64,000 nucleotides of DNA from NCBI GenBank assembly GCA_963664395.2, contig OY761159.2, forward strand, positions 2,432,001 through 2,496,000, read 5' to 3'. Within the stretch, counting starts at the first letter, position 1; the number at the start of each line of letters is the position of its first letter. The DNA is from Candidatus Binatia bacterium. Its GTDB lineage: Bacteria > Desulfobacterota > Binatia > Bin18. The position numbers and the translations under genes are program-made. This document shows, one piece after another, positions 11,204-32,772 of the stretch. The notes under the pieces were generated by a model. It made no database searches, was not told the DNA's origin, and worked only from the letters and a program-made list of their open reading frames with translations.

Positions 11204-11211
11204 AAGGGGTG

Positions 11212-11526
11212 TCACTGACGTTCTTGTGCCTCCCTGACGAGTGCGTCGTGGAGTAAGGTCTTCATATACGTTTGATATTTGGGCACGCCTTTTTGCCGAG
11301 CCAGCTTGCGAGCGAGTTCGACATCACCGACCGCGAGGCGGATACTAATCTGCCTGGTTGGCGGTCTCAGCACATAGGGTTTTTTCAATTCGCCCGGATC
11401 ATCAATATGCGAGTCAAGAAAAGTGGTGTCCATTTCTTCCAGAATACAATCTGGACAGAACCACTTGCCCTGGTCATCTTGATATCGTTCCGTGCCGCAG
11501 CGCTTACATATGTTTTGTCTCTTCAT
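11212..11526 (-). CDS. Putative antitoxin (BrnA/CopG-like RHH) with N-terminal CxxC..CxxC
   Basis: TRQISIRL...ARKLARQKGVPKYQTYMKTLLHDAL; overlaps the toxin stop codon. Confidence 0.65.
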   Translation of the reverse strand: MKRQNICKRCGTERYQDDQGKWFCPDCILEEMDTTFLDSHIDDPGELKKPYVLRPPTRQISIRLAVGDVELARKLARQKGVPKYQTYMKTLLHDALVREAQERQ

Positions 11527-11804
11527 TGCTCTTTCATCTCCCTATGCCAGCTCAGGATTTGTTTTCTGGTTGAAGGCCAAGCGGTAATGACATGGATGTG
11601 CTCCTCGGTAATGCGTAAGAAGACAACTGTCAGGAAACGGCCCTGGAATGTCCTGCCCACGGCCTTTAAGACTCGGCCCTTTTGCCCAATAACTACGACA
11701 GGCCCTGAAAAGACTTCGGCGAAGACGCTCTCCTTAATGGTACTATGGCGAGCTCGATAGTGCGCTTTCTTTGCCTTTTTGTCATACGCAAAAGTAATTC
11801 GCAT
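11523..11804 (-). CDS. Putative BrnT-like toxin
   Basis: 93 aa; KAVGRTFQGRFLTVVF....IHVITAW pattern; toxin-first arrangement. Confidence 0.6.
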   Translation of the reverse strand: MRITFAYDKKAKKAHYRARHSTIKESVFAEVFSGPVVVIGQKGRVLKAVGRTFQGRFLTVVFLRITEEHIHVITAWPSTRKQILSWHREMKEQ

Positions 11805-11908
11805 AGTGTAATGACTTGAATATACTTTTGGGTGAATAATATACAAAGTGCGACTTGTCATCAAACCCAGCTCTTGCCCGCAGCGGCTTTGACTGATTCC
11901 TTGCCCCC

Positions 11909-12604
11909 ATGTCTGACGGCCTGCCTCCCGATACTGAAAAAGCGACCTCGGTGCGGGCGATGTTTGATTTGATCGCCCCGAACTATGACACGCTGAACCG
12001 TTGGCTGTCTTTGCGTCTGGATCAATACTGGCGGCGCAAGACTCTCCGTAGTATTGACGTCTGTGCTGATGATGGTGTGCTCGACTTGGCGTGCGGAACG
12101 GGGGATTTGAGCGAACTCGCTGCGGCAACCGGTGCCCGGGTTATGGGTGTTGACTTTGCCCGCAACATGCTCGTCGGCGCAACCCGGCGTCGGATCAAAG
12201 CCGACTTTATTCAGGCCGATGCGAATGCCTTACCCCTCCCGCCGGCATCCGTTTCGGTTGTCGTGTCCGGCTTTGCCCTGCGAAATTTTGTTTCAATTCC
12301 CAACGCGCTCCAAGAAGCGGCGCGCGTCCTCAAGCCCGGCGGACGACTGGCTTTGCTTGAGGTTGATACGCCACGCAATTCTCTCCTGAAATGGGGCCAT
12401 GGCTTCTATTTTCAGCGCCTCGTGCCCATTCTCGGTGGTCTGATCTCGGACAGAAAGTCGTATCTTTATTTGCCGCGCTCCGTGGTGTACCTGCCGGAGG
12501 AAGCCGAGCTGCTGGCGATGGTTCGAGCGGCGGGATTCGAGCAGGTCGTAAAGCAGAATTTATCCGGTGGGGTGGCGCAGTTGATTACAGCAGTGAGACG
12601 ATAA
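11909..12604 (+). CDS. ubiE: UbiE/MenG-family quinone biosynthesis methyltransferase
   Basis: VRAMFDLIAPNYDTLN, VLDLACGTGD, FALRN, RVLKPGG, YLYLPRSV. Confidence 0.8.
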   Translation: MSDGLPPDTEKATSVRAMFDLIAPNYDTLNRWLSLRLDQYWRRKTLRSIDVCADDGVLDLACGTGDLSELAAATGARVMGVDFARNMLVGATRRRIKADFIQADANALPLPPASVSVVVSGFALRNFVSIPNALQEAARVLKPGGRLALLEVDTPRNSLLKWGHGFYFQRLVPILGGLISDRKSYLYLPRSVVYLPEEAELLAMVRAAGFEQVVKQNLSGGVAQLITAVRR

Positions 12605-12626
12605 AAAGTAATAGACCACCGCAACA

Positions 12627-14123
12627 TTATCGGCTCATGTAGGGAATGAGCTTCTCCAACACCTGAGGCAGCTCTGTGCACGGCACGTCTTCTAATAGCT
12701 TCTTGCCGGGCCGGGCGTCCGGGCCGGAGCGGCCACCGACAAACACATCTACCGCTTCAATAGTTTTCCCATCACGCTGCACTTTCTTGCCCAGAAAACC
12801 GATATCCGCAGTCGTATGGTTCCCGCAGCCATTCTGACAGCCCGACCAGCGCATGGTGAGTGGTGTGGTATTGCCCAGGGTCTTTTCGAGGTGGCGGGCC
12901 GTGTCGAGTGCGCGCTGTTTTGTTTCAATCAGCGAATAGTGACAGTAATCAACGCCGGTACAACTGACCAGCCCACGCATGAAGGCCGAAGGGTCATAGC
13001 GTAATTCCTGGAGCAATGGCTCCTGGGTCAGGTCTCCGATCATATGATCCGGAATATGCGGGACAATCAGATTCTGACTCGGGGTCAGACGAATCTCTCC
13101 ACTGCCATAGTGTTCCGCCAGCTTGGCGACACCGAGCAGTTGCATTGCAGACAGCCGTCCTGTCGGGACTACCAGACCGACGTAGTTGAAGCCGGTTTGC
13201 TTTTGGCGAAAGAGACCAACGTGATCGGTGCGTGCAGTACTCCGCGCATCCTTGCCCGCGGAAAGGAGCGGCTGCCCGCGGCGGTGTTCCAGTTCACGCC
13301 GAAATTTTTCAATCCCCCAGTCTTGGATGAGGAAGAATAAGCGTGACTTTTTGTGATCCTGGCGTTGGCCGTGGTCGCGAAAGAGTAGGGCAATTGTGCC
13401 ACACAGGGGAACGGCTTCTTGCGGAGGGATGAAGACATCAAGCGCTTGCGCCGGCGTATAGCCGCCCGATCCCTGCTTGCCGCCAACGAAGACGTTGAAA
13501 CCCTGGCTCTCAACCCGGCCGTTCTCCCGGCCGTTCTCCCGGCCGTTCTCTTTAACCGCCGGCACCAGGCCCACATCTTGTGAGTCCGGATAGGTACAAT
13601 TGTCTAAACACGCAGAGATGGTGACTTTGAACTTGCGCGGAAGATTCGTGTACTCCGGGTTGCGTAAGAACGCCTCGGTATAGTGTTGTGTGACCTGTGA
13701 GGCGTCAAACAGCTCGCCCGGCGTCAGGCCGGCAGCCGAGCAGCCGGTCACTCCACGGATGTTATTCAGGCCGGTCTGAAGCGAGACCAGGCCGACTTGT
13801 CCAAGCCGCTGCCACATCTCCTGCACATGCTCGATATGAAACCAGCGCAGTTGGATTTGCTGCCGGGTCGTAATGTCAACAAAGCCCTTGCCGAATTCTT
13901 CGCTCAGCGCCGCCAGGGTGCGAAACTGGGCCGCATTGCTGAGCCCGTTGCTCATCCGCAGCCGCATCATGAAATTGCCCGGCGTCTGACGCCGAAAGAA
14001 GACGCCGGCGCCTTTGAGCCCCTCTATTTCGTGTTCGGACAGGGCTTTCCAGCCGTCTTGAATAGCGTGAGAGAGGCTGCTCATGCCAGCCTCCTCTGCT
14101 GCGTGTGATGCCATGCGTTTCAC
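12627..14123 (-). CDS. nirA: Ferredoxin-nitrite reductase (siroheme)
   Basis: FMMRLR, ITTRQQIQLR, NLPRKFKV, SCTGVDYC and SGCQNGC siroheme/4Fe-4S ligands; directly downstream of the nitrate transporter. Confidence 0.8.
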   Translation of the reverse strand: MKRMASHAAEEAGMSSLSHAIQDGWKALSEHEIEGLKGAGVFFRRQTPGNFMMRLRMSNGLSNAAQFRTLAALSEEFGKGFVDITTRQQIQLRWFHIEHVQEMWQRLGQVGLVSLQTGLNNIRGVTGCSAAGLTPGELFDASQVTQHYTEAFLRNPEYTNLPRKFKVTISACLDNCTYPDSQDVGLVPAVKENGRENGRENGRVESQGFNVFVGGKQGSGGYTPAQALDVFIPPQEAVPLCGTIALLFRDHGQRQDHKKSRLFFLIQDWGIEKFRRELEHRRGQPLLSAGKDARSTARTDHVGLFRQKQTGFNYVGLVVPTGRLSAMQLLGVAKLAEHYGSGEIRLTPSQNLIVPHIPDHMIGDLTQEPLLQELRYDPSAFMRGLVSCTGVDYCHYSLIETKQRALDTARHLEKTLGNTTPLTMRWSGCQNGCGNHTTADIGFLGKKVQRDGKTIEAVDVFVGGRSGPDARPGKKLLEDVPCTELPQVLEKLIPYMSR

Positions 14124-14150: not shown

Positions 14151-15512
14151 TTAGCCCGCAATTGCCGGAACCACGCCGTTTTCTGCCAACGCCTTTTTTT
14201 CGGCCAGGGCTTTTTCCAGATTGCGCTGTTCTTCTTCGTGAACTGTTTGCGGAAAGGTTACCAGGCATACGCAGACAGACGCAATGGCAACGGCGATGCC
14301 GAGAATCAAAAGGCCCTGCTGGGTACTGATATTTTCCGAGCGAAACAGGAATCCGGCCGCAACCGCCCCGGCATTCCCGCCTGCACCCACAATACCGGCA
14401 ACACCCCCGAGCGCCTTCTTATTGATAAAGGGAACTACTGCGTATGTCGCTCCGCAGGACATGTGAACAAACAGGCCGAAGAAGACCATGGAGATAACTG
14501 CCAGGGGTAGTACGGTCATTCGTGAAAAAAGGATGAGAGCGAATCCCTCCGCCAGCAGCACAGTGCCAAGAAACAGGATTCGTCCCTTGAGCCCGCTCTT
14601 GACAGCAACCATGTCTGAGAAGATTCCACCCAAGGTTCGTGCAAAAATGCTCAGGAGGCCAAACAATCCCGCCGTTAGTCCAGCTGTTTTAATGTCTAAA
14701 GCAAAGTAGTCGTGATAGTACAGCGCAGCAATATTGTGGATCGTCAACTCGACCCCAAAACAGGCCGCATAAACAACGAACAAGGCCCACACCCGGTAGT
14801 CTTTGGCAGCGAGCCAAAACGATTTCGTTGAACTGCCTTCGGCTGGAGGCAACTCGCCGCGCGCACGCAGCTCTGCGTAATTGCCATCCGGCGCATCCTG
14901 GGTACAAAAGTAATAGCCAATACCGGTCAGAAACAGGACCACACCCGGTATGACCATCGCCAACCGCCAGCCGAACGATTCACCCACGCCAAAGAACAGC
15001 ACGACACCTAAGATGAGTGGCATCACCATTTGGGTGACACCCCCACCCAAGTTCCCCCAGCCGGCGGTCGTGGCGTTGGCCGTGCCGACACAATTGGGGC
15101 CGAACATGATCGAGGTATGGTACTGCGTAATAACAAACGAAGCGCCGATCGCGCCGATCGCGAGGCGAAAGAGCAGAAAGCTCTCATAGCTGTGCGCCAG
15201 GCCAATACCCATGACCGGCAGGGAGCCGATCAGCAGCAACCAGGTATACACCAGGCGCGAGCCAAAGCGGTCGCACAGCGGGCCAATAATAATGCGGACA
15301 ACGACCGTAATGGCAACCGACGCGATAATAGTATTCCCCACCTGGGCCTTGGTCAGCATCAGATCTTCACGGACCAGCGCCATTAGCGGCGCAATACCAA
15401 ACCAGCCGAAGAAACACAGAAAGAAGGCGAACCAGGTCATGTGAAAGGTCCGCATCTGTGGGGTTGCCAGGCTGAACAGATCGATTTTCGTGGCTTTGTT
15501 TTTGACTTCCAT
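14151..15512 (-). CDS. narK: Nitrate/nitrite MFS transporter (NarK/NRT2)
   Basis: FCFFGWFGIAPL, nitrate signature GTANATTAGWGNLGGG, FGVELT, GIVGAGGNAG. Confidence 0.92.
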   Translation of the reverse strand: MEVKNKATKIDLFSLATPQMRTFHMTWFAFFLCFFGWFGIAPLMALVREDLMLTKAQVGNTIIASVAITVVVRIIIGPLCDRFGSRLVYTWLLLIGSLPVMGIGLAHSYESFLLFRLAIGAIGASFVITQYHTSIMFGPNCVGTANATTAGWGNLGGGVTQMVMPLILGVVLFFGVGESFGWRLAMVIPGVVLFLTGIGYYFCTQDAPDGNYAELRARGELPPAEGSSTKSFWLAAKDYRVWALFVVYAACFGVELTIHNIAALYYHDYFALDIKTAGLTAGLFGLLSIFARTLGGIFSDMVAVKSGLKGRILFLGTVLLAEGFALILFSRMTVLPLAVISMVFFGLFVHMSCGATYAVVPFINKKALGGVAGIVGAGGNAGAVAAGFLFRSENISTQQGLLILGIAVAIASVCVCLVTFPQTVHEEEQRNLEKALAEKKALAENGVVPAIAG

Positions 15513-15723: not shown

Positions 15724-15865
15724 CGTCCGTTCTCTCCTGGGCGATGATTCTTGAACATTCCCTTGCCTCAAAACGCCGGGCTTGTGATTTGATCTGATTT
15801 GAGGAATGTAAAGGGTTGACGCTTGTCATCACATGCTGAGCGGCATGGCAAGGAGAATCGCGTTC

Positions 15866-16585
15866 ATGGGCCGGACAGAAAAAAATATATACGGAGGGCG
15901 AGATCCCCGTGAGTTGTCGGCGTATGGTATCCCAGAGGCGGCTCACTATCTGCGGATTCCAGTTGCTACCCTCCGGACGTGGGTTTGCGGTCGGCACTAT
16001 CCAACCCGGCAAGGTCCTCAGCGCTTTGAACCGATCATAGCTCTTGCCGATACGGAGCGCTTCTTGTTGTCCTTTGTGAATCTCATTGAGGCGCATGTTC
16101 TCGCCGCTATTCGTCGTCATCATCGCGTGTCGTTCCCCAAAGTCAGAAGCGCGTTACGCTATCTCAATCGGCACTTTCCCTCCCCGCATCCACTGGCTGA
16201 TCAACATTTTGAAACGAATGGATTAGATCTCTTCGTCGAACAGTTCGGAAACCTGATTGCCATCTCAGATGAGGGGCAGCTCAGTATGCGGGATATGCTG
16301 AAAGCCCACCTGCATCGGATTGAACGGGACGTATCTGGGCTGGCGATTAAGCTGTATCTATTCACCCGACGAGACACCTCTGAGACTGCGCCCCGTGTCA
16401 TCGTTGTTGACCCGCGCATCGCGTTTGGACGGCCGGTGGTAGTCGGCACCCGCATCTCAACCGAAGTCGTCTACCAACGATTCGAAGCCGGGGAGTCGAT
16501 TGTCCGACTTGCGGATGACTATGGCCGCACGCCAGCAGAAATCGAAGAAGCGATCCGCTGCGAGCACTACAGAGACGCGGCCTGA
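15866..16585 (+). CDS. DUF433-domain antitoxin (VapB45-like, N-terminal HTH)
   Basis: YGIPEAAHYLRIPVATLRTW, LSFVNLIEAHVL, VDPRIAFGRPVVVGTRI...AGES...LADDY. Confidence 0.85.
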   Translation: MGRTEKNIYGGRDPRELSAYGIPEAAHYLRIPVATLRTWVCGRHYPTRQGPQRFEPIIALADTERFLLSFVNLIEAHVLAAIRRHHRVSFPKVRSALRYLNRHFPSPHPLADQHFETNGLDLFVEQFGNLIAISDEGQLSMRDMLKAHLHRIERDVSGLAIKLYLFTRRDTSETAPRVIVVDPRIAFGRPVVVGTRISTEVVYQRFEAGESIVRLADDYGRTPAEIEEAIRCEHYRDAA

Positions 16586-17006
16586 AGGTTCCACCTTTTT
16601 TCTCGACCAAAGCTTAGGGGACAAGGTCGTTGCGCAAGCTCTCCGTCAGCAAGGATGCAAGGTCGAACTGCTAAAAGAGCACTTTGCGACCGATGCGTTG
16701 GATGAAGAATGGCTGCCTGAGGTGGGGCGGCATGACTGGCTGGTCCTAACCAAGGATGATCGTATACGCAAACGCCCGGCTGAGCGTGAAGCGCTCATGC
16801 AGAGCGGGGCTCGCGCTTTCATTCTTCCCTCGGGTAATATGTCCGGTGAAGATATGGCTTCAGCTATTGTCAAGGCACTCCCGAAAATACGACGGTTTGT
16901 TACAAAAAATCCTCCGCCTTTCATTGCGCGCATATCCAAAGCAGGGGAAGTCTGGTTGTTGGACCCACAACGCTCTACACGTGTAAGAAGGCGAAGAGAA
17001 AACTAA
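16521..17006 (+). CDS. PIN-like toxin (VapC45 type); start uncertain
   Basis: FFLDQSLG, DEEWLPEVG..DWLVLTKDDRIR; overlaps the antitoxin 3' end. Confidence 0.8.
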   Translation: MAARQQKSKKRSAASTTETRPEGSTFFLDQSLGDKVVAQALRQQGCKVELLKEHFATDALDEEWLPEVGRHDWLVLTKDDRIRKRPAEREALMQSGARAFILPSGNMSGEDMASAIVKALPKIRRFVTKNPPPFIARISKAGEVWLLDPQRSTRVRRRREN

Positions 17007-17021: not shown

Positions 17022-17264
17022 TCAGGATGCCTTTCCCGCGGGTTTGGTAACACGCGCGCGATGCCAGATGTCGGCATCGCCACTGGCCTGACAGGTCGGG
17101 CAGGCTTCGTCTGGGGACCGGAGATAGCCCCGTCCATCGCACTGCCGACACAAGCCGTTCAGCAGATAGACCTTATAATAGAAATCGGTCATATCGTGGA
17201 CATTGTGAAAGAAAGATTTGATTTGCTCGACAATGTGGTCGGGGTAAAATGCCTGATCTTTCAT
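17022..17264 (-). CDS. Hypothetical protein with CxxCxGxG zinc-finger-like motifs
   Basis: CRQCDGRG...CPTCQASG; AAGGA RBS; last gene of the reductase operon. Confidence 0.55.
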   Translation of the reverse strand: MKDQAFYPDHIVEQIKSFFHNVHDMTDFYYKVYLLNGLCRQCDGRGYLRSPDEACPTCQASGDADIWHRARVTKPAGKAS

Positions 17265-17283
17265 CGCAACATCCTTCTCTCAT

Positions 17284-17502
17284 TCAGCGTTGAATCATGC
17301 GCCACAGCCAGGTGGCCACGGCAAAGCATACCCCCGAGGCCACCGCCGCCGGAACAACAATACCGCCCGCCCCGCCGAGATGACCTTCAATCGCTTCGAC
17401 CAGCAGCCATAACTGCACGAGTAACAGCACAACGACAAAAGCGGTGACCAGTCCGAGCACCGAGCTGCGCTGCTGGCGCAGTGTGGCGGAAGGTAGATTC
17501 AT
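17284..17502 (-). CDS. Small two-TM membrane protein (DUF6755-like)
   Basis: VVVLLLVQLWLL..AIEGHLGG....VVPAAVASG. Confidence 0.6.
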   Translation of the reverse strand: MNLPSATLRQQRSSVLGLVTAFVVVLLLVQLWLLVEAIEGHLGGAGGIVVPAAVASGVCFAVATWLWRMIQR

Positions 17503-17510
17503 ACGGCAGC

Positions 17511-18005
17511 CTACACCTGCATTCCCGTCGCCCACACGGTGTCGTCCTTGACCTGAAGCACAATGCGCGGCAGCGGGCGTTTAGGCGGCCCTGCCAGCGG
17601 CCGGCCGTCTTCCAGCGCGAAATAACCTTCGTGGCAAGGGCAGTGGAGCTGCTTTTTCTCTTTTTGGTAGAGGACAGGACAGAGTAAATGCGTGCACTTC
17701 TGGCTATACGCGACAAAGCGGTCCGTGGCGACCCGAATCAATAAGCAGGGATCGGTTTTGGTGGGATAAAAAAAGAGTGTGGCCTGGCCAATCGCGACAT
17801 CCGATACCGCGGCAAGGCGCAGCGCCGTAAACTGCGCCGGTCGCCAGCGCTGCCACCATTCTCGAACGGCAACCAGTCCTGTGCCGAGAAAGAGCGCACT
17901 CGAAATAAAGGTCAGAAAAGTGGTGAAGGAACGCCGGGTCACATAGTGATCATCTTCCCAATTGATGGGGAAATCTTCACGCCAGCGGGGAATGCTATCA
18001 GGCAT
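17511..18005 (-). CDS. Rieske 2Fe-2S protein with TRRSF motif and TM helix
   Basis: CTHLLC and CPCHEG Rieske boxes, AGPPKRPL; VTRRSFTTFL followed by a hydrophobic segment. Confidence 0.88.
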   Translation of the reverse strand: MPDSIPRWREDFPINWEDDHYVTRRSFTTFLTFISSALFLGTGLVAVREWWQRWRPAQFTALRLAAVSDVAIGQATLFFYPTKTDPCLLIRVATDRFVAYSQKCTHLLCPVLYQKEKKQLHCPCHEGYFALEDGRPLAGPPKRPLPRIVLQVKDDTVWATGMQV

Positions 18006-18040
18006 TGCTCTACGCTCTCATCTCTTTGGGCTGGTTTCTC

Positions 18041-18601
18041 TCATTCACAGAAACTCGCCACATCAAACTCCATCTCATCCGCTGCCGTGTCACCCACCAT
18101 GAGATGGACTTTTGTGGTCACGACTTGCCGGCCAAAGGTGAAGCGGTTGATCGGCTTTTCCTGCCGCTTGTGTTCGATTTCTTCTTTGGTGCCAAAGAAC
18201 AACGCGCCGCTTGGGCACACCGTGGCGCACATGGGTTTGAGGTCCGCTGACGTGCGGTCGTAACACATGTCGCACTTCATCATCTGGTCTATCTCGCCCA
18301 GATAGCGTGGTACGCCAAAGGGACAGGCCAGGACGCAGTTTGAACAGCCGATACAGCGGGCCTGTAAGGCCGACTGTACAATGCCCTCTGCGGTCTGCTT
18401 AATCGCATCCGCCGGGCACACTTGCGCACAGGTCGGGTCTTCGCAGTGCATGCACACGGTCGGCGTGGTCTGCGGCGAACTCGAACGGTCAACGTAATCC
18501 AGGTGGATCATGGACACGCCCCGGTGCGACTCGCACTCAGCGCAGGCATGGACACAGGCTTGGCAGCCGATACAGCGGGAAGGGTCAATAAAGAATTCCA
18601 T
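18041..18601 (-). CDS. 4Fe-4S dicluster protein (DmsB/NrfC-like)
   Basis: [42 protein letters not shown]...CATVCP. Confidence 0.9.
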
Positions 18602-18603
18602 AC

Positions 18604-20781
18604 TTACACACCTGCTTCCACTTTGTGCAGACGAACGGCACACACCTTGAACTCGGGGATTTTGGAGATCGGATCAAGCGCGCGGCTCGTCACCCGATTG
18701 GCGGCTTTCTCGCCTGGCCAGTGATAGGGAATAAAGATCGTGTCAGGCCGAATCGTGCGCACGACCAGAGCCGGCAGGGTGAGGGACGAACGCCGACTTT
18801 CGACACACACCATATCACCGCTCTGAATGTCATACTGTTCGGCCAGCCTGGGATGCAGCTCGATCTGTGGGCCTGGATATTGATCGACCAAGGGGCCGAT
18901 CCGCCGGGTTTGGGTGCCGCTTAAATACTGTGAAACGACCCGACCGCTGGTCATAATAATGGGATAGGCCGCATCGACGTCCTCAGCCGGTGGACGGTAC
19001 GTCACTGGATGGAACTTGGCTTTGCCGTCAGGGTGGAAAAAAATACCCTCTTCAAACAGGCGCGGCGTGCCCGGATGTTCCCGGCTCGGACACGGCCAGA
19101 AGATGCCGTTGTTCTGTTCGATTTTGGCGTAGTTCAGGCCGGCATAATCAACCGGCCCGCCAGCCGAGACCCGACACAATTCACGGAATAGATCTTCAGA
19201 CTCGGCATACGGAAAGAGCAGCTCTTTGCCGAGTCGATGGGCGATATCGACAATAATCTCCCAATCGACTTTGGCATTCCCCGGCGGTGGAACGGCTCGA
19301 CGAATGCGAATGACGCGGCCTTCACCGTTTGTGACTGTGCCCTCGTCTTCTTCCTGCAGCGAACCGGCCAGCACGACGTCGGCATGGTGGGCCGTTTCGG
19401 ACATAAAGGGGTCAATGACGGTAAAGAATTCGAGTTTTTCGAGCGCAGTGCGCGTCAGATTCGTATCCGGGAGTGAGACCAGCGGATTGAACGATAACGA
19501 CAGCAGGCCCTTGATCTGACCTGTGTTGACCGCATCCATGAGCTCGACGGCAGTCAGCCCGATATGCGGAATATCAGACTCGTTGACCTTCCATTCCCTG
19601 GCGATTTCTTCCCGGTGCTGCGGATTCTCAATATCGCGCCCACCCGGTAACTGATTGCAGCGCTGGCCGTGCTCACGTCCGCCCTGCCCGTTGCCCTGGC
19701 CGGTAATCGTTCCGTAGCCACAGCCCACTTTGCCGATCCTCCCGGTCGCCAGGACCAGGTTGATACAGCTCAGGACGTTCTCTACCCCCTTGGTGTGATG
19801 TTCGATCCCGCGGGCGTGCAGCAGCATCGAGCTCTCGGCCTCGGCCCACATTTCGGCCGCACGCATGATACCGGCTGCCGGAACACCTGCGATCTCGGCA
19901 GTCAGCTGCGGGGTATATTCGGCCACTGCTTCCTGTACGGATTCAAAGCCATTGGTGTGGGCGTTAATAAAATCGTGGTCTATCCAGTCGTGTTCAATAA
20001 GAACATGCAGGATGCCGTTCATGAGCGCACTGTCGCGCCCGGGCCGCACGGGCAGGAATAAATCCGCGGTGCGGGCAGTCGGCGTCATGCGGGGATCGAT
20101 GGCAATGAATTTGGCGCCATTATCACGCGCGCGCCACAGATAATCAGTCAGGATGGGAAAGCATTCACCGATATTGCTGCCAGTGACCAGGACGAGCTTC
20201 GTCAGCGGGATATCCGACCAGGGATTTGCGGCCCGGTCGATGCCAAATGCCATCTTGTTGGCCGCCCCAGCCGAAACCATGCATAAACGACCGTTGTAAT
20301 CGATGTTGGCCGTTTGGAGGGCGACCCGCGCGAATTTGCCCATGAGATAGGCTTTTTCATTGGTCACCGAAGCCCCGGACAAAATCGCAAAAGCATCCTT
20401 GCCATATGTGTCTTGAATGCGCTGGATGTTTTCGACCACCAGAGACAAGGCTTCATCCCAGTCTGCCTCCCGAAAGCCACTGTCTGTCCGAATGAGGGGA
20501 TGCAGCAGGCGATCCGGGTGGTTGTTCTGGAGATAGCGTTTGACCCCTTTGGGACACAGCTTGCCCTGATTCACCGGAAAGTCTTCCCAGGGCTCAAAGC
20601 CAACCACTTTGTCGTTGTGGACTTTGAGCTGAATGCCACACTGGACGCCGCAGAAACAGCAGTGTGTTTTGACGAGTCGGGCGGGCTCATGCTCCGCTAG
20701 CCAGCCACCGGGCGGTTCATAATTGAGATGCGGGCCGTATTGATGAATCAGTTCCTGTTCGGATAACGGGGGGATCGCCAT
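18604..20781 (-). CDS. Molybdopterin oxidoreductase, NasA/NarB-type nitrate reductase catalytic subunit
   Basis: HCCFCGVQC...CPKG (4Fe-4S), [13 protein letters not shown] (Mo-ligand Cys), [21 protein letters not shown]; no signal peptide; context nirBD/narK. Confidence 0.82.
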
Positions 20782-20804
20782 AATGGAAAACTCTTCTTAC
20801 GCAC

Positions 20805-21975
20805 CTACCGGCGTTCCTCTTTTCCCCTCTCGGGAGGGGTGCTGCGGAGCAGCGGGGTGGGTTCCGGGCGCATGGACAGGACCGGGGAACCCACCCCGGC
20901 CCTACGGGCCACCCCTCCCAAGAGGGGAACTATCTGCGTGTCTGCAAACGGGTCGTCTGTGTACGGCATGGTCAGGCCTTGATTCCGGGCCAGCAGACGC
21001 CGCCGACAGGGGGGACACACGTCTTGATAGTGCAACTGACCAAATTGGTAATTGAAATCCAGCTCGCCCAACACGTCTTTCAGATCATCAATCTATCTGG
21101 GAGGCGTACGGCTCGTTACACACGTAGCAGCTTGCCTGCTGGCCAGCCTGGGCCTCACGTTTATAAAATGCTACCCCGAGCTGAGCCGGACGCTGGAAGA
21201 TGTGAAAAAATTTACCAAAAGGCAGATACAGCAGCATGGCGATGACCGCGGCGGCGTGTGTAATCGCAATAAAAGTGAAGCCGTGCCCGCCCAACCAGCG
21301 CGCGCTGACCGTCAGACCCAGCCCGGTGACCGCCACCACGAACAGCAGCAGAACAGGCAGCACGTCATTGCCGAACTGCTGGAGTGAAATCGTCCCCGGC
21401 TCAGTCAGCCGGCGTTGTATGGCCAGACCCACTCCGACCAAAACCAGCACGGCAGAGATATTCAGCGCATTAAAAGACAAAAACGCAGGGATGGAGTCAA
21501 CAGAAAATTCCTGTATTTTTACCCCTAAAACAATGACCTGATAGGTATTGAGATCGTCCGCCGGCGTTTCAAAATGGAGCCAGCCGAAGACGAGCGGAAA
21601 CGTCACCGCAAAGGCGGGAGTCCCGCCCCACGACATACACACGTGCATCAGCCAGCGCACCCGACTCCGGTTGGCGATGAAGCGCTGGGTCGCAAAATTA
21701 TCAAAGAGCTGCTGGCCCAACATGACCGAGTTGCGCAGCACCCCGCCCTGCCAAAAGAGTCGCCAGCCTTGGTACCAATAGCGCTTGGTTGGTGGGCGTT
21801 GCAGCCAGACGGTGTAGCGATAGGCCACCGCGGCGGCACAAAAAATGGACGCTATGGCATACGGCAGCAGCACCCAATCGAAATGGCGCAGGTTGTCTGA
21901 GCTGAGGATAATCAGGCCGGCCACGAAAGCCCCGGTCAGGGTCGCGATGATACCTGCTGTCGGCTCAAGCGTCAG
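20805..21975 (-). pseudogene. NarI/DsrM-like polytopic membrane protein with C-terminal Cys motifs, frameshift near 21095
   Basis: TM helices with His (WLMH, AITH, PFGKFFHIF); CYVC in one frame, HYQDVCPPC in another; possible CTG start overlapping the nirD stop. Confidence 0.7.
20822..20929. repeat. 108-bp palindromic MITE/REP-like element in the 3' tail of the NarI-like gene
   Basis: TTCCCCTCTCGGGAGGGGTG...CACCCCTCCCAAGAGGGGAA and CGGGGTGGGTTCC...GGAACCCACCCCG arms; a half copy lies at 63054-63091. Confidence 0.75.
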
Positions 21976-22382
21976 TTTCGTTCTCCCGTCATCGCTGTGG
22001 GGGCTGTCAGCGTAATGACAATCCGTCCGTTTGCCTCGCGCACAGGATAGGTCTGCACAACGCTCTCCTCGCCCAGACACTGACCCGTCGCCAGGTCAAT
22101 CTTCCACATGTGCAGCGGACAGATCACCTTCCCGGAACCAAGCAGCCCATCGGCCAGTGGGCCGGCCTTGTGCGGACAGGCATTATCCGTGGCGAAAAGA
22201 CGCCCGTCCCGTTGACGGAACACGGCAATTGTTTCCCCTTCAAGCCTATACGCGCGCCCCTCACCAAGCGGGATAAAGCCGATTGGACCAAGATCAATGT
22301 CCGCCGCCGGATGCGCCAAGGGCCGGGAATCCCCGATAGGTCCGATGTGTGGCACGGGTTGCGTAACAGGGCTCTGGTTCAT
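21972..22382 (-). CDS. nirD: Nitrite reductase small subunit (Rieske-type)
   Basis: IPLGEGR, NACPHKAGPLADG, CPLH; follows nirB. Confidence 0.8.
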   Translation of the reverse strand: MNQSPVTQPVPHIGPIGDSRPLAHPAADIDLGPIGFIPLGEGRAYRLEGETIAVFRQRDGRLFATDNACPHKAGPLADGLLGSGKVICPLHMWKIDLATGQCLGEESVVQTYPVREANGRIVITLTAPTAMTGERN

Positions 22383-24889
22383 TGGACACCTTCCTCTCTC
22401 CGAGTCGGGGCCTCAACCGGCAGAGGAGCGGCAAACTGGCTGACGTTCTCGGGCTGGACTGCCTCTGTAGACCAGGGGTCTCGATACGCCGCAACAGCCT
22501 TATTGATCTCGGCATCCAAGCGCTCGCAGATGCCTTCCGTATCGTCGATGAGCACCGCTCGCAGATGTTCAATACCGACGCGTTCGGCAAACCCATAGGT
22601 ACGTTCCAGGTATTTGGCATTCTCCCGGTAGTACTGGATGAAGCGGCCCATATAGGTGAGGACCTGCTCATGTCCTTCGACCGTACACAGCAGATCGCCT
22701 TTGCGGACCGTCCCGCCGGCCGCCCCGCCGATGTAGATTTCCCACTTGTCGTCCCCGATGGCCACCGCGCCCAAATCCTTGACGTAGGCTTCGGAGCAGT
22801 TGCGCGGACAGCCGGCGGTTGCCAACTTCATTTTGTGGGGTGACTCGACGCCTTGATAACGTCGCTCGATTTTCTGAGCCAGGGCAATCGAGTCGCCCAA
22901 GCCATAGCGGCAGAAGTCGGTGCCCACGCAGCTTTTGCAGGTCCGAAACGCTTTGGTATAGGCATGGCCGCTCGGAATGCCGAGTTCTTTCCACACCTTG
23001 GGCAGATTGTCTTTTGTGATGCCCAACAGGTCGATGCGTTGACCACCCGTAATTTTGACCATCCGCACGTTGTACTGTTCCGCCACCTCGGCAATGCGTT
23101 TCAGTTCGGCCGGAGAGGTGACACCCCCATAAATACGGGGGACCACGCTGAAGGTGCCGTCGTGCTGAATATTGGCATGGACACGGTCATTGATATACCG
23201 GGCGTCGCGTTCGTCTTCGTATTCGTCCGACCAGAGAGATTTGAGCAAAGAGGCCAGCCCGATCTTGCTGCCGGGGTCTTCTTTACCGTCGGCCAATGCG
23301 CGAAAGACCGCGCTGACGCTTTTCAGTTGTTTGGCTTTGATTGCAGCGATGAGTTCCGGTTTCGGCAGTGGAACGCCGGGGACATAATAATGCTCACTCG
23401 GGTCCTCTACGATCTCGTCCGCATATGCCTCTAAAAGCTGGGCGACCAAGGGTTTACAACTCCCGCAGCCGGCCCCCGCTTTCGTCTTGGTCCCGACCTG
23501 CATGACGGACGTACAGCCCCCGGTTTCAATCGCGGTGCGGATACAGCCTTTGGACACGCCATTACAGTTGCAAATCTGGGCTGCGTCCGGCAAATCGGCC
23601 GCGGCCAGCAGGGGCGCACCATTCGCCGGGCCAAAAAGGAGATCGGCCCGGCGTTCCGGCAGCGCGGTGTCCAGGCTGAACATCTGCATCAGCGTGCTGG
23701 CGGTATCGGCTTCGCCGAGGAGAATCGCGCCGTGCAGTTTGTTTTCGCGAATAATCAGTTTTTTGTACACGCCGCGCGACGGCTCCCGGTAGACGACAAC
23801 CTCGTCGTCAGGCTCGGCTTTTTTGGTCTCGCCCATCGAGGCGAGTTCCACACCCATGACTTTGAGTTTGGTCGCCAGTTTGGAGCCTTCATACGCAGCA
23901 GCCGGGTTGGTTTCGGTTATGACGTCGGCTAACGTCCGGGCCTGGTCCCAGATTGGATCAACCAGCCCATAGATGACCCCGCGATGCTGGACACACTCAC
24001 CCACCGCAAACACGTCCGGATCGCTCGTGCGCATCTGGTCGTCACACACAATCCCACGCTCGACCGCTAAACCGGAGTCGGTCGCAATTTCGACAATGGG
24101 ACGAATACCAGTGCTGACGACAACCATGTCTGTTTCGAGAGTAGAGCCGTCTTTGAATCGGAGCCCGGTGACGTGCTCCTCGCCAAGAATATGGGTGGTG
24201 ATTTTTTCGAGCAGGACGCTAATGCCCATCTGCCTTAAGGTCGTTTTCAACAAGTCGCCGGATTCCGGGTCGAGCTGGGCACTCATGGGCTGCGGCATGG
24301 CTTCGAGAACAGTGACCTCGACCCCATGGGTCAGGAGGCCACGCGCTGCCTCAAGACCAAGCAAGCCCCCACCGATGACCGCGGCGCGCCGACACCGTTT
24401 GGCATAGGCAGCAATCTGCTCGCAGTCATCAATAGTTCGAAAGAGAAACGTGCCGGCTTTGCCCATACCATCCATGGGTGGCACGAACGGACGGGAGCCC
24501 GTGGCGATAATGACTGTGTCGTAGGGCTCTTCGATACATGCTGCCGCTTGAGCGCAGCCATTGAGCCCATAGGCCGGGGCGTCCGTTCGCATGGGCTGGC
24601 CGATAACGACGCGCCGCTCACGGTCGATCAGGGTCGCTTTGACGCCGGCATGGAGCTGGATATTGTTCTCTGCATACCAGGCTAACGGATTGAGAAAGGT
24701 GTCCTGCATGGGCTGCGAGCCGTTCAGCACGTTGGACAGCAGGATGCGGTTGTAGTTGCCGTAGGGCTCGGCGCCGAACATGGCAATGGCAAAGCGGTCA
24801 GGGTCGCGAGCCAGGATTTCTTCAACAACGCGCGCACCCGCCATGCCGTTGCCAATCACCACAAGTCGCTCTTTTTGCGTACCGGCCAT
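22379..24889 (-). CDS. nirB: NAD(P)H nitrite reductase large subunit
   Basis: VIGNGMAG, YNRILLS, GGGLLGLEAA, CNCNGVSK..GCGSC, NDRVHANIQ, CVGTDFC, GCPRNC; GAGGAGG RBS. Confidence 0.93.
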   Translation of the reverse strand: MAGTQKERLVVIGNGMAGARVVEEILARDPDRFAIAMFGAEPYGNYNRILLSNVLNGSQPMQDTFLNPLAWYAENNIQLHAGVKATLIDRERRVVIGQPMRTDAPAYGLNGCAQAAACIEEPYDTVIIATGSRPFVPPMDGMGKAGTFLFRTIDDCEQIAAYAKRCRRAAVIGGGLLGLEAARGLLTHGVEVTVLEAMPQPMSAQLDPESGDLLKTTLRQMGISVLLEKITTHILGEEHVTGLRFKDGSTLETDMVVVSTGIRPIVEIATDSGLAVERGIVCDDQMRTSDPDVFAVGECVQHRGVIYGLVDPIWDQARTLADVITETNPAAAYEGSKLATKLKVMGVELASMGETKKAEPDDEVVVYREPSRGVYKKLIIRENKLHGAILLGEADTASTLMQMFSLDTALPERRADLLFGPANGAPLLAAADLPDAAQICNCNGVSKGCIRTAIETGGCTSVMQVGTKTKAGAGCGSCKPLVAQLLEAYADEIVEDPSEHYYVPGVPLPKPELIAAIKAKQLKSVSAVFRALADGKEDPGSKIGLASLLKSLWSDEYEDERDARYINDRVHANIQHDGTFSVVPRIYGGVTSPAELKRIAEVAEQYNVRMVKITGGQRIDLLGITKDNLPKVWKELGIPSGHAYTKAFRTCKSCVGTDFCRYGLGDSIALAQKIERRYQGVESPHKMKLATAGCPRNCSEAYVKDLGAVAIGDDKWEIYIGGAAGGTVRKGDLLCTVEGHEQVLTYMGRFIQYYRENAKYLERTYGFAERVGIEHLRAVLIDDTEGICERLDAEINKAVAAYRDPWSTEAVQPENVSQFAAPLPVEAPTRREEGVQ

Positions 24890-24943
24890 GTATGCGTCCT
24901 CCTCACAGCCGCCGACGAGAGACAGCCTGATGGGATAAAGATG

Positions 24944-24959
24944 AGCAAGACCGAGGCCA
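24944..24959 (-). promoter_or_regulatory. sigma54 promoter of the nirB operon
   Basis: TGGCCT-CGGTC-TTGCT, ~55 nt upstream of nirB. Confidence 0.75.
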
Positions 24960-25229: not shown

Positions 25230-28200
25230 TTACGGCTCCACATCCGTAATGACAAAATTCTGACTGGTCTGCTGCCACTCCAGGGTGACTGTCTCGCCCA
25301 GCGTCGGAAAGTCTGCGACCACACATTCCCCCTCAACCCCCCGCAGAAACTCCACCCCCAGCGTCGTCACCCGCACCGTGGCCCGGCCTAACTCTTCGCC
25401 ATCCACAAACGCCACCACGTCATGCTCCCCGTCCCCCAGCAGATTCCAGTTGAACAACAAGCCAAACCCATTGTCCGTGTCCCCACACGCCCCTAGCGTG
25501 TCCAACCGCTCCGTGCCATACGCGGCCACCTGCCGCCCGGCAGTCCCAATCGCAAGCTCAACCGTGTCGGCGTCACACACCCAGCCCGAGAGCACCCGGA
25601 CCCCACTCTGAAAGGAATTGGGACCCGGATTCTCCAGATACCCCGTCAGGGCGCTCGTCCGGCCCGTGGTGGCACCGGCCGGGCGACTCCCTCTCGCCAT
25701 CACGAAATTCTGGCTATTTTGCTGCCACACCAGCGTCACCGTCTCGCCTGGCATGGGGAAGTCTGCGGCTGCACATTCCCCCTCGGCTCCCCGTAGAAAC
25801 TCCTGCCCCACGGTCGTCACCTGTACCGTGGCCCGGTCTAACTCGATGTTGTCCACATAGGCCACGACTTCATGCTCCCCATCCCCCAACAGGTTCCAGT
25901 TGAACAGCAACCCAAACCCGTTGTCCGTATCCCCACAGGCATCCAACGTATCCAGCCGCTCCGTCCCATACGCCGCCTCCTGCGGCATCCCGTTCAACTC
26001 GAGCTCCACCACCGCCGCCGCACACACCCAGCCCGACAGCACGCCAATGCCACTCTGAAACGCCGCTGCGCCCGGATTCTCCAAGTAGCCCGTCAGTAAG
26101 CGCGCCTCCAGCGTATACGCCCCGGTCTGCCCGTTCTGCCCCTCGACCGTCACCAGCACCGGTCGGGCCGTCACCGGGGTGCGGACCCGGAAGTTCTGCT
26201 GCTCCCCGCCCCCGTCGGCCTGTGCCAACATGGCCCCGTCCTGCCACACCGTGCCCCGAGTCGCGGTCGGCCCCGTGGTCTCGACCGCCAACACCCCGGC
26301 CCGGGGCAGCGGTAACCCAAAATAATCCACATCGTCCGGTGCATGGAGTTGGCCCGGTATGGAGGCGGACCGGGCCGCGCTGAGCACGATGCGGGTGGCC
26401 TGCGCCGGCATCGTGCCGTGGTCGTCGCGGACCTCCCCGCCCCCACCTCCGCCGCCGCCACCCCCGCCGCCAAAAGGCGGTACCCGTGTCGGGGGGTTGT
26501 CGTTGTCCGTGATCGTCAGCGTCGCCGAAGTCACGCCATCGGATAGGTCCGGTGCCGTGCCGCTGACCGTGACCGTCTCGTTCGGCTCGTCGATGGCATC
26601 GTCCACCGGCGTCAGGGTAAACGTCGCCGTGCCGGTCTGATCCCACGCCGCAATCTCCAGCGTGAAGGCCTCCACCGCCGTGAAGTCCGCCGCCGTGGCC
26701 GCCGCCACGCGCACGGTCACTTCGGTGTCCTGCCGGAGCACCCCACTGTTCAACGTCCCCGTCACGGTCACCGTCCTGCCTGCAACCTCTCCCTCGCCGA
26801 CTGCCGACGGATTCACACTCAGCGTCGCGGCTGTAGATGGACTCTCGTCATCCGTGACGGTCACCGCCACGGCGGCGACCGTCACGTCCGTGGTCACTGC
26901 CCTCGACCGTCGTCACGGTGTGGGTCAGCGTGGCCGCCAGATCGTAGCCGTCCGGGTCGTGCTCCGTGCGGATCGTCACGGTCTGGGCCGTCTGCCAGGT
27001 CGTGGGCGTGAACCTCAGCGAGGTCGGCTGCACGCCGACCGCCGTCTCGCTCGACGCCACGGCTATCGTCACGGGCGAGGTCGGCTCGGAGTTCAACTTC
27101 ACCGTGTAACGGCCTGTGTTGCCCTCAATGATCGACAGCTCCCCGCCTGGAATCGGCTGCCCCCCCGCCGCCAGTGTCACCCCCCCCTCGTCGTCCTCGA
27201 TCGTCAGCATCACCGTGACCGGCCCAGCCACGCAAACGTCGTCCGCCGTCCCACTCACCGTCACCGTCTTGGTCTCCGGCCAGTCCACAGCGTTGTCCCT
27301 GGCCGTCAGCGTCACCTCTCCCGTGCTCTCCGTCTTCCCCGCGGTGATCGTCAGCGTCAGGTTCTGACTCAGGGTGACGTCGCCCGCCGGGGCTGCGACC
27401 GTCACCGTCGTCGTCATGCTTGGGGCCGGGGACAGCGTGGCTGTCACCGTACTGCTCTTCGCGCCGCTTTCGCTGATCGAGTCCGGCGTCAGGTTCAGCG
27501 TCAGCACACCTTCCTCGTCGGTCAACCCACGGCTGCGGTCCTGGGAACGGATACATGTGAGTTTCCGCTCCAGACGCTGGGCGACAATGGGATGCTGGTC
27601 ATAGACGTTGTGCTGCTCCGATGGGTCGGACGCGATATCGAACAGTTGGTAGGGCCTTTGAAAGGGACGACCTCTAGGACTTTCCCTGCCCCCGGAACCG
27701 TCCCCGGCGACGAGCTTCCAGTCACCGTCACGGATCGCGAACATCCCGCTGGAGGAATGATGGATCACCGCCGCGCGCGGACGTGTCCACGGATTGCCGT
27801 GTAGGGGCGGTAGGAGGCTGAAACTGTCCTCGGCCTCATTCTCGGACAACTCATGACCAACGATCTCCGCCACCGTTGCAAAGACATCGGTCAGAGAGAT
27901 GACCTCCTCCTGGGTGCTGTCGGGGGTAATCTCCCCAGGCCAGCGTGCGAAGAACGGCACGCGATAGCCCGCCTCCCAGATATCGGCCTTAGTCCCTCGA
28001 TACACGTGATTCGGGGTGTGATTGGCCGACCGATACCCCTGGAGCGTCGAATCATCCGCGTGATCCCTTTCTCCAGGTCCGTACTGGCGCATGAAGGACC
28101 CATTGTCGGAGGTGAAAATCAGCAGTGTGTTGTCGTCGACTTCGGCTTGGTCCAGTGCGCTCATCACGTCGCCCACGGCTGCGTCGACCTGTACGATGAA

Positions 28201-31385: not shown

Positions 31386-31407
31386 AGAGAAAGCGAACTG
31401 AAAGCCT

Positions 31408-32416: not shown

Positions 32417-32772
32417 CGTTTTGTCTAGGGATGAATCTGCAAGGCGGGTTGGTTGGGATTGCCGATACGCGGGTGATTGCCGGCAATGAACGCATCACGG
32501 CCCGTAAAGTGTCTGTGTTCCAGAAAGAACGCCGGGCCATGTTTCTCATGAGTTCCGGGCTGCGCTCGGCGCGGGACAGCCATCGGATCATCCAGCACCG
32601 CTACGAGAAGGAAGACCTCCAGGACCTGTCCACCGTTTGGCAGGAAGGGCTGCGGCGCTCGATCAATAATCTATCCGCCGACTGGGTTGAGCACGCCTTT
32701 GACAAGCTGGCGCTGCCGGCCGACAACCCCAGCCTGCTGTTACCCGCGCCCAACGGGGCGGACCGCGTGTAA
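32413..32772 (+). pseudogene. Anbu-like proteasome-type (Ntn) peptidase with a large in-frame internal deletion
   Basis: AGGAGG RBS; MTFCLG...GLVGIADTR...SGLRS start joined directly to the C-terminal HRYEKEDL...W segment; only 119 aa. Confidence 0.72.

Follow-up and report, generated by a model that had tools for sequence, protein, structure and literature searches.

Several described enzymes bear on the gene set discussed here: the membrane-bound nitrate reductase NarGHI of Escherichia coli (1Q16), the NasC-type nitrate reductases (Bacillus subtilis NasBC and Paracoccus NasBGC), the haloarchaeal nitrate reductase, in which NarGH is combined with the Rieske protein NarB and the cytochrome b NarC, and the arsenite oxidase AioAB. 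Here, we describe five neighboring genes that resemble each of these systems in part. They lie in a window of 64,000 nucleotides (nt) from Candidatus Binatia bacterium, the window being the whole stretch of DNA that was analyzed; near relatives of its genes carry the Candidatus Binatia name in public records. The five genes encode a membrane anchor, a molybdenum (Mo) enzyme with a bis(pyranopterin guanine dinucleotide) cofactor (Mo-bisPGD), an iron-sulfur (Fe-S) subunit with four clusters, a Rieske protein, and the small membrane protein DUF6755. We propose that these core genes, which we refer to as the "module", probably form one membrane complex, an uncharacterized quinol-fed nitrate reductase that faces the cytoplasm. 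We consider it a novel form of membrane-bound molybdoenzyme, which would work like NarGHI around a catalytic subunit of the NasC kind, with a Rieske center, predicted to face outward, as an addition.

Like NarGHI, the module combines a Mo-bisPGD enzyme with a four-cluster Fe-S subunit and a putative diheme-b anchor of the same fold, whose histidine pair aligns with the helix-V pair of NarI; its active site is predicted to face the cytoplasm, and it is genetically linked to narK. Unlike NarGHI, it has a catalytic subunit of 725 amino acids (aa) that belongs to the NasC/Nap/Fdh branch and has a Cys ligand, an Fe-S subunit of only 186 aa, an anchor with six helices and a four-Cys domain, and two extra subunits, the Rieske protein and DUF6755; no narJ was seen in the module cluster. 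The NasC-type enzymes share with the module the curated family that matches its Mo subunit best, the Cys-Met and Thr active site, the lack of both a signal peptide and a C-terminal 2Fe-2S domain and, in Binatia, the company of nirBD and narK. They differ in that the module's Mo subunit falls short of the family's equivalog cut-off and is consistently paired with a four-cluster protein and an anchor in the membrane, and in that its Rieske protein is membrane-anchored and of the bc/Aio type, not the NirD/NasG type. A passage of Wells et al. 2020 says of the Nas/Nap/Aio/Fdh clade that it has neither four-cluster nor membrane-anchor partners (PMC7331816); the module is a counter-example to this family-wide statement as worded in that passage.

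Haloarchaeal NarG is exported by its own twin-arginine translocation (Tat) signal, and the nitrate reductase operon resembles the module in that it includes a four-cluster subunit along with a Rieske protein and a b-type cytochrome. The relevant passages of one paper present the haloarchaeal enzyme as quinol-driven, with a Q-cycle-like coupling proposed, a NarG-type catalytic subunit that faces outward, and a NarC that is a cytochrome b of 486 residues identified through database searches (PMC2483277). To judge from the proposed Q-cycle, NarC would be of the bc type; in the module, by contrast, the Mo subunit lacks a signal and the anchor has a predicted NarI fold. AioAB, which holds the closest solved relatives of the module's Rieske subunit, has a twin-arginine on its Rieske subunit and a Mo partner without a signal of its own. 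Unlike the module, it is a periplasmic oxidase with neither a four-cluster subunit nor a membrane cytochrome, and AioA is listed in a published table as having no amino-acid ligand to Mo (PMC10100899).

The nearest precedent comes from Heylen and Keltjens 2012, who noted in Bacillus bataviensis a 729-aa NasC beside a "hybrid iron sulfur protein" and a Rieske-type protein, a linkage shared with other species, and suggested an alternative assimilatory system (PMC3475470, in the passage on this linkage). Set beside the module by description only, this is probably the same core. It is a remark in a genome paper, and the passage that contains it mentions neither an anchor, DUF6755, a twin-arginine, nor coupling to the membrane (PMC3475470). 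An earlier note on this DNA, made from the sequence alone, had called the complex uncharacterized; in the literature searched, which covered a minority of subscription journals, we found that remark, no description of the complex, and no paper on DUF6755.

The five genes travel together across bacterial phyla. Relatives of the Rieske gene were confirmed at 123 places in contigs from one genome per species, and the best 80 of the 123 were fetched as loci, 56 of them adequately flanked (5 kb or more upstream, 400 nt or more downstream). In 52 of these 56, the anchor, Mo, Fe-S, Rieske, and DUF6755 genes are on the same strand in the same order, so that the accessory genes are indeed conserved together. 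The four exceptions are L023, without an anchor or Mo gene, L032, without an anchor, and L077 and L086, in which DUF6755 was not detected. Carriers belong to the Binatota, Acidobacteriota, Planctomycetota (Lacipirellula limnantheis), Verrucomicrobiota, Chloroflexota, Melainabacteria, Armatimonadota, and Bacteroidota, and a profile search with the anchor returned 361 cluster representatives at E ≤ 1e-30 among 1.84 billion. Deinococcota also carry the module, on plasmid p_2 of Deinococcus sp. D7000 (L097, positions 7889-12893). There it lies between two NarK/NasA genes, with the anchor annotated as "MFS transporter" and the other genes given generic names; this Deinococcus is cultured. In the window's own genus, the module was found in 10 of 24 genomes.

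NarK-family transporters accompany the module in two forms: of 59 loci, 22 have an in-frame fusion of the anchor with a NarK-family domain (in L056, for example, TIGR00886 matches with E 1.7e-66), 19 others have a NarK-like gene of its own, and none was seen in the other 18 stretches. No longer, fused forms of the Rieske protein were found among 725 candidates, which is weak evidence. A 1013-aa "Mo-FeS" open reading frame (ORF) in L024 and 353- and 360-aa "Rieske" ORFs in L106 and L105 had the appearance of fusions and were rejected as spurious long frames in GC-rich DNA.

The Mo subunit has the Pfam domains Molybdop_Fe4S4, Molybdopterin, and Molydop_binding only, and therefore no 2Fe-2S extension. 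No signal peptide was seen on it, and a Tat-like pattern was present in one of 59 homologs, in untranslated upstream text. Domains and N-termini alike agree with the earlier description of a Nas-like Mo enzyme that lacks a signal peptide and a C-terminal 2Fe-2S extension. Its best curated family is the NasC equivalog model (NF047855), at 812.6 bits over positions 16-707 of 708. The formate dehydrogenase (FDH) model Fdh-alpha (TIGR01591) gives 623 bits, below its cut-off of 666.25, and a true FDH of the same genome shows the reverse order (Fdh-alpha 766.4, NasC 533). NapA (TIGR01706) reaches 266.7 bits against a cut-off of 930.55, and the subunit has no N-terminal twin-arginine with a hydrophobic stretch; arsenite_ox_L (TIGR02693) reaches 142.2 against 359.05. 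NarG (TIGR01580) matches the window's Mo gene only as a 24.5-bit fragment, with no match above its cut-off of 1084 anywhere in this genome (G000). Five carrier genomes were checked for NarG and NapA, and neither exceeds its cut-off in any of them.

The active site points the same way as the NasC score. The motif RLCM, the Cys ligand to Mo followed by Met, is present in all 31 module Mo sequences, and the position of Arg333 in FdhH is occupied by Thr (TGQ) in 29 and by Val (VGQ) in two. E. coli NapA and two NasA proteins share this pattern, whereas three FDHs have Cys or selenocysteine followed by His (C/U-H) and RGQ instead; these are the residues that we take, partly from general knowledge, to separate nitrate reductases from FDHs. 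A quick tree unites the 31 sequences in a single supported clade, nearer to the three FDH references than to two proteobacterial NasA proteins; this deep placement is provisional, since the tree included no Bacillus-type NasC or cyanobacterial NarB reference. Thus, the residues and the excess of the NasC over the Fdh-alpha score favor a nitrate reductase, and the tree leans toward FDHs. Considered together with the link to NarK, nitrate is most likely the substrate.

The enzyme could instead act on formate, arsenite, chlorate, selenate, or iodate, or could run in reverse as a nitrite oxidase, with electrons leaving through the Rieske center. Besides the neighborhood of the FDH references on the tree, the resemblance of the Rieske subunit to that of arsenite oxidase would suit such a role, as would the best sequence matches among solved structures, which are FDHs (7qv7_S with 487 bits, compared to 351 for NapA, among the matches listed); this ranking, however, is biased, because no solved NasC or NarB chain is among those matches. 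The His and Arg of FDHs are replaced as in nitrate reductases in all 31 rows, the arsenite oxidase model stays far below its cut-off, and both the constant link to NarK and the nitrite reductase neighbors speak for nitrate. We regard another substrate as extremely unlikely.

The anchor was modeled with AlphaFold from an intact homolog in a near relative (L009; predicted local distance difference test score [pLDDT] 88.4), and the model shows six helices, with a beta-hairpin on the outer side and a four-Cys domain at the C-terminus. A VIA-align structure search with this model found Mycobacterium smegmatis EtfD (Z 11.9, root-mean-square deviation [rmsd] 3.7, 211 residues aligned) and E. coli NarI (1q16_C; Z 10.9, rmsd 4.9, 184 aligned), with the next match at 8.2; the Pfam family Nitrate_red_gam (PF02665) matches at 17.4 bits, under its cut-off. 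Aligned with hhalign, H241 and H259 of the anchor fall on H187 and H205 of NarI, which we take to be ligands of the two hemes. Together with H112 and the four Cys, these residues are invariant in all 38 anchors compared, and a fourth His, at position 135 or 170, is also present in each. On the strength of the model, we describe the anchor as a NarI-fold, putative diheme-b protein, in agreement with the His-bearing NarI-like membrane protein of the earlier note. Its orientation can be read from the natural NarK-anchor fusion, in which 12 helices of the major facilitator superfamily (MFS) precede the anchor: since MFS proteins have both termini inside, the anchor should start and end inside. The four-Cys domain (L009 residues 279-333; window positions 20945-21130) has a counterpart in the E. 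coli formate hydrogenlyase complex (7z0t), where it can be superposed on chain F, residues 112-165, with Z 6.4, rmsd 1.8, and 25% identity; it is a putative metal site for Zn or Fe.

The Fe-S subunit, whose true start is probably MEFFIDP at 18601, has 14 invariant Cys and two more that are at least 90% conserved. The four-cluster Cys pattern is present, as expected for the DmsB-like protein described earlier, and the NarH model (TIGR01660) gives 37.5 bits, compared to a cut-off of 524.

In the Rieske protein, C104, H106, C109, C122, C124, H125, R24, and R25 are invariant in 38 of 38 sequences; they include the cluster ligands and both extra Cys, in boxes like the CTHLGC and CPCH of bc-type Rieske proteins. 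The motif TRRSF, with its invariant RR followed by xF, stands ahead of a hydrophobic helix, as noted earlier, and the stretch ahead of the RR is also conserved, which is unusual. The RR, the xF, and the helix fit a putative Tat signal-anchor, and TatC is present in the genome. The closest solved relatives are AioB (E 2.7e-12) and bc-type subunits; the best curated or solved matches, QcrA, AioB, and PetC, are all under their cut-offs (AioB, TIGR02694, 49.1 bits against 95.65). No bc-type cytochrome b that could serve as the Rieske partner was found among the Pfam hits in ten loci, the partner being instead a protein of the NarI/EtfD fold. The two-transmembrane-helix protein described earlier is DUF6755 (PF20540, 60.8 bits, above the gathering cut-off of 27). 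The small Cys-motif protein is also present as described, with a weak DnaJ-type match (CxxCxGxG, 19.1 bits, under the cut-off). It is possibly an assembly factor, and its gene occurs in 12 of 80 loci, in Binatia and near kin only.

A four-chain structure prediction with the anchor, the Fe-S subunit, the Rieske protein, and DUF6755, in which the Rieske protein was scored as the partner, gave a coherent model with a score of 0.79, compared to 0.34 for the best of three controls. Of 157 solved complexes, 116 attain that mark, as do 2 of 215 mismatched pairs, counts that are only a rough guide here because we used our own alignments and four chains. At least 92% of contacts recur between runs, and the pLDDT of the partner is at least 76. 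In the model, residues 14-16 of the conserved Rieske N-tail contact residues 56-71 of the Fe-S subunit; Rieske F12 and F27 lie at the inner helix ends of the anchor (57-58 and 250-251); DUF6755 wraps the Rieske helix; and the Rieske cluster loops rest on the outer loops of the anchor (129-169 and 222-235). If the model is right, these contacts mean that the Fe-S and Mo subunits would be cytoplasmic and that the Rieske head would face the outside.

The complex could also have the opposite sidedness. The Mo and Fe-S subunits could fold inside, be exported bound to the Rieske protein by virtue of its twin-arginine, and reduce nitrate in the periplasm; the Rieske center would then feed the Fe-S wire directly, while the diheme anchor ran a Q-cycle-like loop, as proposed for the haloarchaeal enzyme (pNar) with NarB and NarC. 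That the RR motif is on the Rieske protein only would be explained in this way, and the Rieske center would gain a clear role. The closest solved Rieske relative is AioB, on which AioA rides, and passages on the haloarchaeal operons give them a Rieske protein, a cytochrome b, and a proposed Q-cycle (PMC2483277). The model, however, places the Fe-S subunit on the part of the Rieske N-tail that precedes the RR, by the inner helix ends of the anchor and on the face opposite the Rieske head, and the conserved four-Cys domain of the anchor is cytoplasmic. Moreover, the transporter fused to the anchor in 22 of 59 loci would be needless for an outward-facing enzyme with a periplasmic NrfA next to it, as in L029. 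An outward-facing enzyme is, in our judgment, quite unlikely.

From gene content, conservation, motifs, and fold, we infer a substrate, an electron donor, a sidedness, and an electron path for the cytoplasm-facing complex as follows. Nitrate would enter through a NarK-type transporter, separate in this genome and fused to the anchor in many phyla. Quinol would be oxidized at the outer face of the NarI-fold diheme-b anchor, where the Tat-exported Rieske head would dock by its cluster loops. Electrons would cross the membrane through the two hemes and enter the four-cluster Fe-S subunit, held to the inner face of the anchor by the conserved cytoplasmic N-tail of the Rieske protein; the cytoplasmic four-Cys domain of the anchor may also help in this transfer. 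They would then reach the 4Fe-4S and Mo centers of the NasC-like subunit, where nitrate would be reduced to nitrite in the cytoplasm. DUF6755 would clamp the Rieske helix. As in NarGHI, protons would be released outside and consumed inside, so that nitrate reduction would add to the proton-motive force. The earlier note inferred a quinol-linked enzyme; as a finding, this would go beyond the evidence, since the quinol donor is read from the fold. Tentatively, and with slightly less than even confidence, we suggest that the Rieske head and the NarI-fold diheme anchor together make a Qo-like quinol-oxidizing site on the outer face that feeds the cytoplasmic NasC-type enzyme.

In the window, the module is part of a longer run of genes on the minus strand, in the order nirB, nirD, anchor, Mo enzyme, Fe-S subunit, Rieske protein, DUF6755, small zinc-finger protein, with narK and a nirA-like gene further on (Table 1). 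The tight packing after nirBD that the earlier note reported is correct in that all six genes lie directly past nirB and nirD on one strand, and needs amending for a gap of 306 nt between the anchor and Mo genes.

Table 1. Positions in the window of the module, its neighbors, and the sequence elements discussed.
Feature	Position	Strand	Match or remark
nirB, NAD(P)H nitrite reductase large subunit, first operon gene	22379-24892	-	TIGR02374, 837.6 bits, above cut-off 578
nirD, nitrite reductase small subunit	21972-22382	-	TIGR02378, 80.2 bits, above cut-off 74.65
Membrane anchor, predicted NarI fold, six helices	21088-22080	-	Start between 22080 and ~21975; frame cut at 21088
Catalytic Mo-bisPGD subunit, NasC-like, N-terminal 4Fe-4S motif, no signal peptide, 725 aa	18604-20781	-	
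Four-[4Fe-4S] electron-transfer subunit, DmsB/FdnH/NarH type	18041-18601	-	Listed ORF to 18643
Rieske [2Fe-2S] protein of bc/Aio type, with a conserved N-tail, an invariant RR, a single membrane helix, and both disulfide Cys in the head	17511-18005	-	
DUF6755 two-helix membrane protein	17284-17535	-	PF20540; likely start MNLPS, 17502
Small DnaJ-type zinc-finger protein, lineage-specific extra gene	17022-17264	-	Weak PF00684 match
NarK-family nitrate/nitrite transporter	14151-15512	-	TIGR00886, 287 bits, just below cut-off 311.7
Ferredoxin-nitrite-reductase-like (nirA-like) siroheme enzyme	12627-14123	-	NF007125, 477.9 bits, below cut-off 594; Pfam NIR_SIR
Toxin-antitoxin-like pair, DUF433/HTH and PIN_10	15833-17006	+	Between module and narK
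Putative sigma54-like -24/-12 element, TGGCCT-N5-TTGCT	24944-24959	-	~55 nt upstream of nirB start
2-nt (GC) deletion shifting the anchor frame	21094-21095	-	Comparison with nine near relatives; contigs of four runs
Out-of-frame remnant of the anchor's cytoplasmic four-Cys domain, with second pair CPPC	20945-21093	-	Three-frame comparison with L009
Palindromic repeat element between anchor and Mo genes	20822-20929	.	85 matches in this genome (G000)

In all nine near relatives, narK and the nirA-like gene are downstream of the module and nirBD is upstream; the toxin-antitoxin-like pair, which separates narK from the module here, is present in six of the nine and broken up in two of them (L016 and L017). 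Because narK and nirA are kept in all nine and the pair in only six, we take the ancestral arrangement to be a single nitrogen-assimilation operon. A nirBD-module-narK-nirA operon with a sigma54-like promoter fits a role of the Binatia complex in assimilation. In the sigma54-like element upstream of nirB, which differs by two mismatches from a consensus that we take to be the canonical one, the TGGC and TTGCT parts are conserved in relatives L009-L017 and the spacer varies, the pattern expected of a sigma54 promoter. Such patterns are at chance level in the window as a whole (29 found, 34.9 expected), so the site rests on its conservation in relatives only. The sigma54 control put forward earlier thus has the conserved site before nirB in its favor and the lack of any excess in the window count against it.

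The position of nirBD raises the alternative of an ordinary soluble assimilatory Nas enzyme, in which electrons from NADH would pass from NirB through the Fe-S and Rieske proteins to NasC, as with NasG in Paracoccus, the membrane proteins serving only to tether the enzyme near the transporter. Directly upstream nirBD genes, in Binatia and in L027, would be accounted for. There are also precedents for the parts: a Rieske-type mediator between NasB and NasC in Paracoccus denitrificans, and the nasC-FeS-Rieske linkage of B. bataviensis, read as assimilatory (both in passages of PMC3475470, the former citing Gates 2011). Yet nirB adjoins the module in only 12 of 80 loci, whereas the anchor travels with it in 52 of 56. 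The Rieske protein is of the bc/Aio type, with its invariant RR, helix, and disulfide Cys, rather than the NirD type, and the anchor has three invariant His, two of them at the positions of NarI heme ligands. We consider a soluble enzyme very unlikely and keep to the membrane complex.

Other genes frame the nitrogen cluster. Upstream of nirB, the minus-strand region 25230-29400, which reaches 67% G+C compared to ~57% elsewhere, encodes a 555-aa protein without a Pfam match, in which a domain is duplicated internally and a poly-Gly run occurs, and a sulfatase of 850 aa that includes an Ig-like domain. The flanks contain a UbiE/COQ5-type methyltransferase (11909-12604, plus strand) and a circularly permuted ATP-grasp plus Alpha-E pair (29931-32772, plus strand); the distant locus L027 shares the methyltransferase and the ATP-grasp plus Alpha-E pair as neighbors.

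This genome's copy of the anchor carries a genuine 2-nt frameshift. The frame ends at 21088, just past the first CxxC pair, and the second pair (CPPC) runs on in another frame to ~20945, because two bases (GC) are missing after 21094 relative to the nine near relatives. Of the C-terminal CxxC pairs reported in the earlier note, therefore, the first is in frame and the second has been split off by the deletion. The deletion is common to the contigs of runs X1 and X2, which belong to one study, and the GC is present in contigs of X4 and X6, from two other studies. X1 and X2 may be the genome's own source data, and for this reason they are not independent of the assembly. The 306-nt gap between the anchor and Mo genes holds a palindromic repeat element (RNA fold -91.8 kcal/mol, z -8.0), which resembles REP elements (repetitive extragenic palindromes) or MITEs (miniature inverted-repeat transposable elements); genome-wide, its copies are often 40-nt half-sites in both orientations, and one related contig, from run X4, skips the element.

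These findings raise the possibility that the system is decaying in this genome, the four-Cys domain of the anchor having been lost through the deletion, the repeat having been inserted, and the complex no longer being assembled here. The lost pair, C323/C326, is invariant in 38 of 38 homologous anchors, the frameshift is absent from two other studies and from the nine near relatives, and the module is patchy within the genus. Conversely, the remaining genes of the operon are all intact, the truncated anchor still has its six helices and three invariant His, and an ORF starting with GTG (20805-21074) could supply the lost part as a separate peptide; in addition, the two runs with the frameshift may not be independent witnesses. 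Decay is conceivable but, in our judgment, rather unlikely. Apart from the frameshift and the gap, the earlier observation of the locus was right; its interpretation, right in outline, is partly supported, with "assimilatory" being specific to a lineage and the quinol link drawn from the fold.

Several points weigh against a quinol-fed, cytoplasm-facing nitrate reductase. For the catalytic subunit, the NasC score of 812.6 is below the equivalog cut-off of 1100, and the module clade on the quick tree is sister to the three FDH references and not to NasA or NapA, on long branches. For the anchor, a Foldseek search with the model returned no match at E ≤ 0.001, the hhalign probability for the alignment with NarI is 53%, and the fourth putative heme ligand is at no fixed position. 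The mean charge of the Rieske helix flanks is -1.4 before and +2.5 after the helix, so that the positive-inside rule favors the opposite orientation; such charges can also be read as a "Sec-avoidance" feature of Tat substrates. The model of the complex is a prediction outside the calibrated setting. The Rieske center has no obvious downstream acceptor on the outer face, and NarI oxidizes quinol without such a center. The copy in this genome, being frameshifted in the anchor, may not work. Lastly, gene contexts vary between phyla.

This variation suggests that the module is used in more than one way. Among 48 loci of at least 12 kb, neighbors include RIC/ScdA (12), a Crp/Fnr regulator (5), an NsrR-like Rrf2 regulator (3), and NrfA (2). 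An assimilatory role, as claimed in the earlier note, agrees with the Binatia lineage, which has nirBD upstream and narK and the nirA-like gene downstream in all nine near relatives, and does not extend to other phyla with their differing neighbors, where anaerobic nitrate respiration or ammonification is more likely. In Lacipirellula limnantheis (L029), a NarK-like MFS gene and the gene for an NrfA-like cytochrome c552 of 541 aa (10672-12297) come after the module, a context that suggests nitrate ammonification with periplasmic reduction of nitrite. A sample of 301 genomes of Acidobacteriota species includes 29 with DUF6755 and 25 with NarG above the cut-offs; both are present in 10, so that 19 of the 29 lack NarG. 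In eight of the 10 with both, probably closely related to one another, the module, with a divergent DUF6755 (27-30 bits), shares a contig with a full narG ~9-11 kb away, and both kinds of nitrate reductase are thus side by side in these genomes; two such loci, L105 (G155:C2) and L106 (G131:C2), were inspected.

Surveys of soils and sediments gauge nitrate reduction by counting narG, napA, and the "assimilatory" nasA/narB, and they would file the module as a soluble assimilatory enzyme accompanied by hypothetical proteins. A review of the Acidobacteria, in its passage on nitrate, reports nitrate reduction in cultures and yet no narG or narB in their genomes (PMC4885859); it does not state that Paludibaculum reduces nitrate. 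The arrangement of a Rieske protein on a NarI-fold anchor, as modeled, would be a new way of building a quinol site, and culturable carriers exist, among them Paludibaculum fermentans, Lacipirellula limnantheis, and Deinococcus sp. D7000. If the enzyme is quinol-fed and faces inward, nitrate assimilation in these bacteria would contribute to the proton-motive force, where other routes spend NAD(P)H or ferredoxin. Should the Rieske head and the anchor form the Qo-like site suggested above, the module would join Nar, Nap, and Nas as a fourth class of nitrate reductase in prokaryotes, one that conserves energy even in assimilation, and would be the unrecognized nitrate reductase in many of the Acidobacteriota, Planctomycetota, Chloroflexota, Melainabacteria, and Binatota that have neither narG nor napA.

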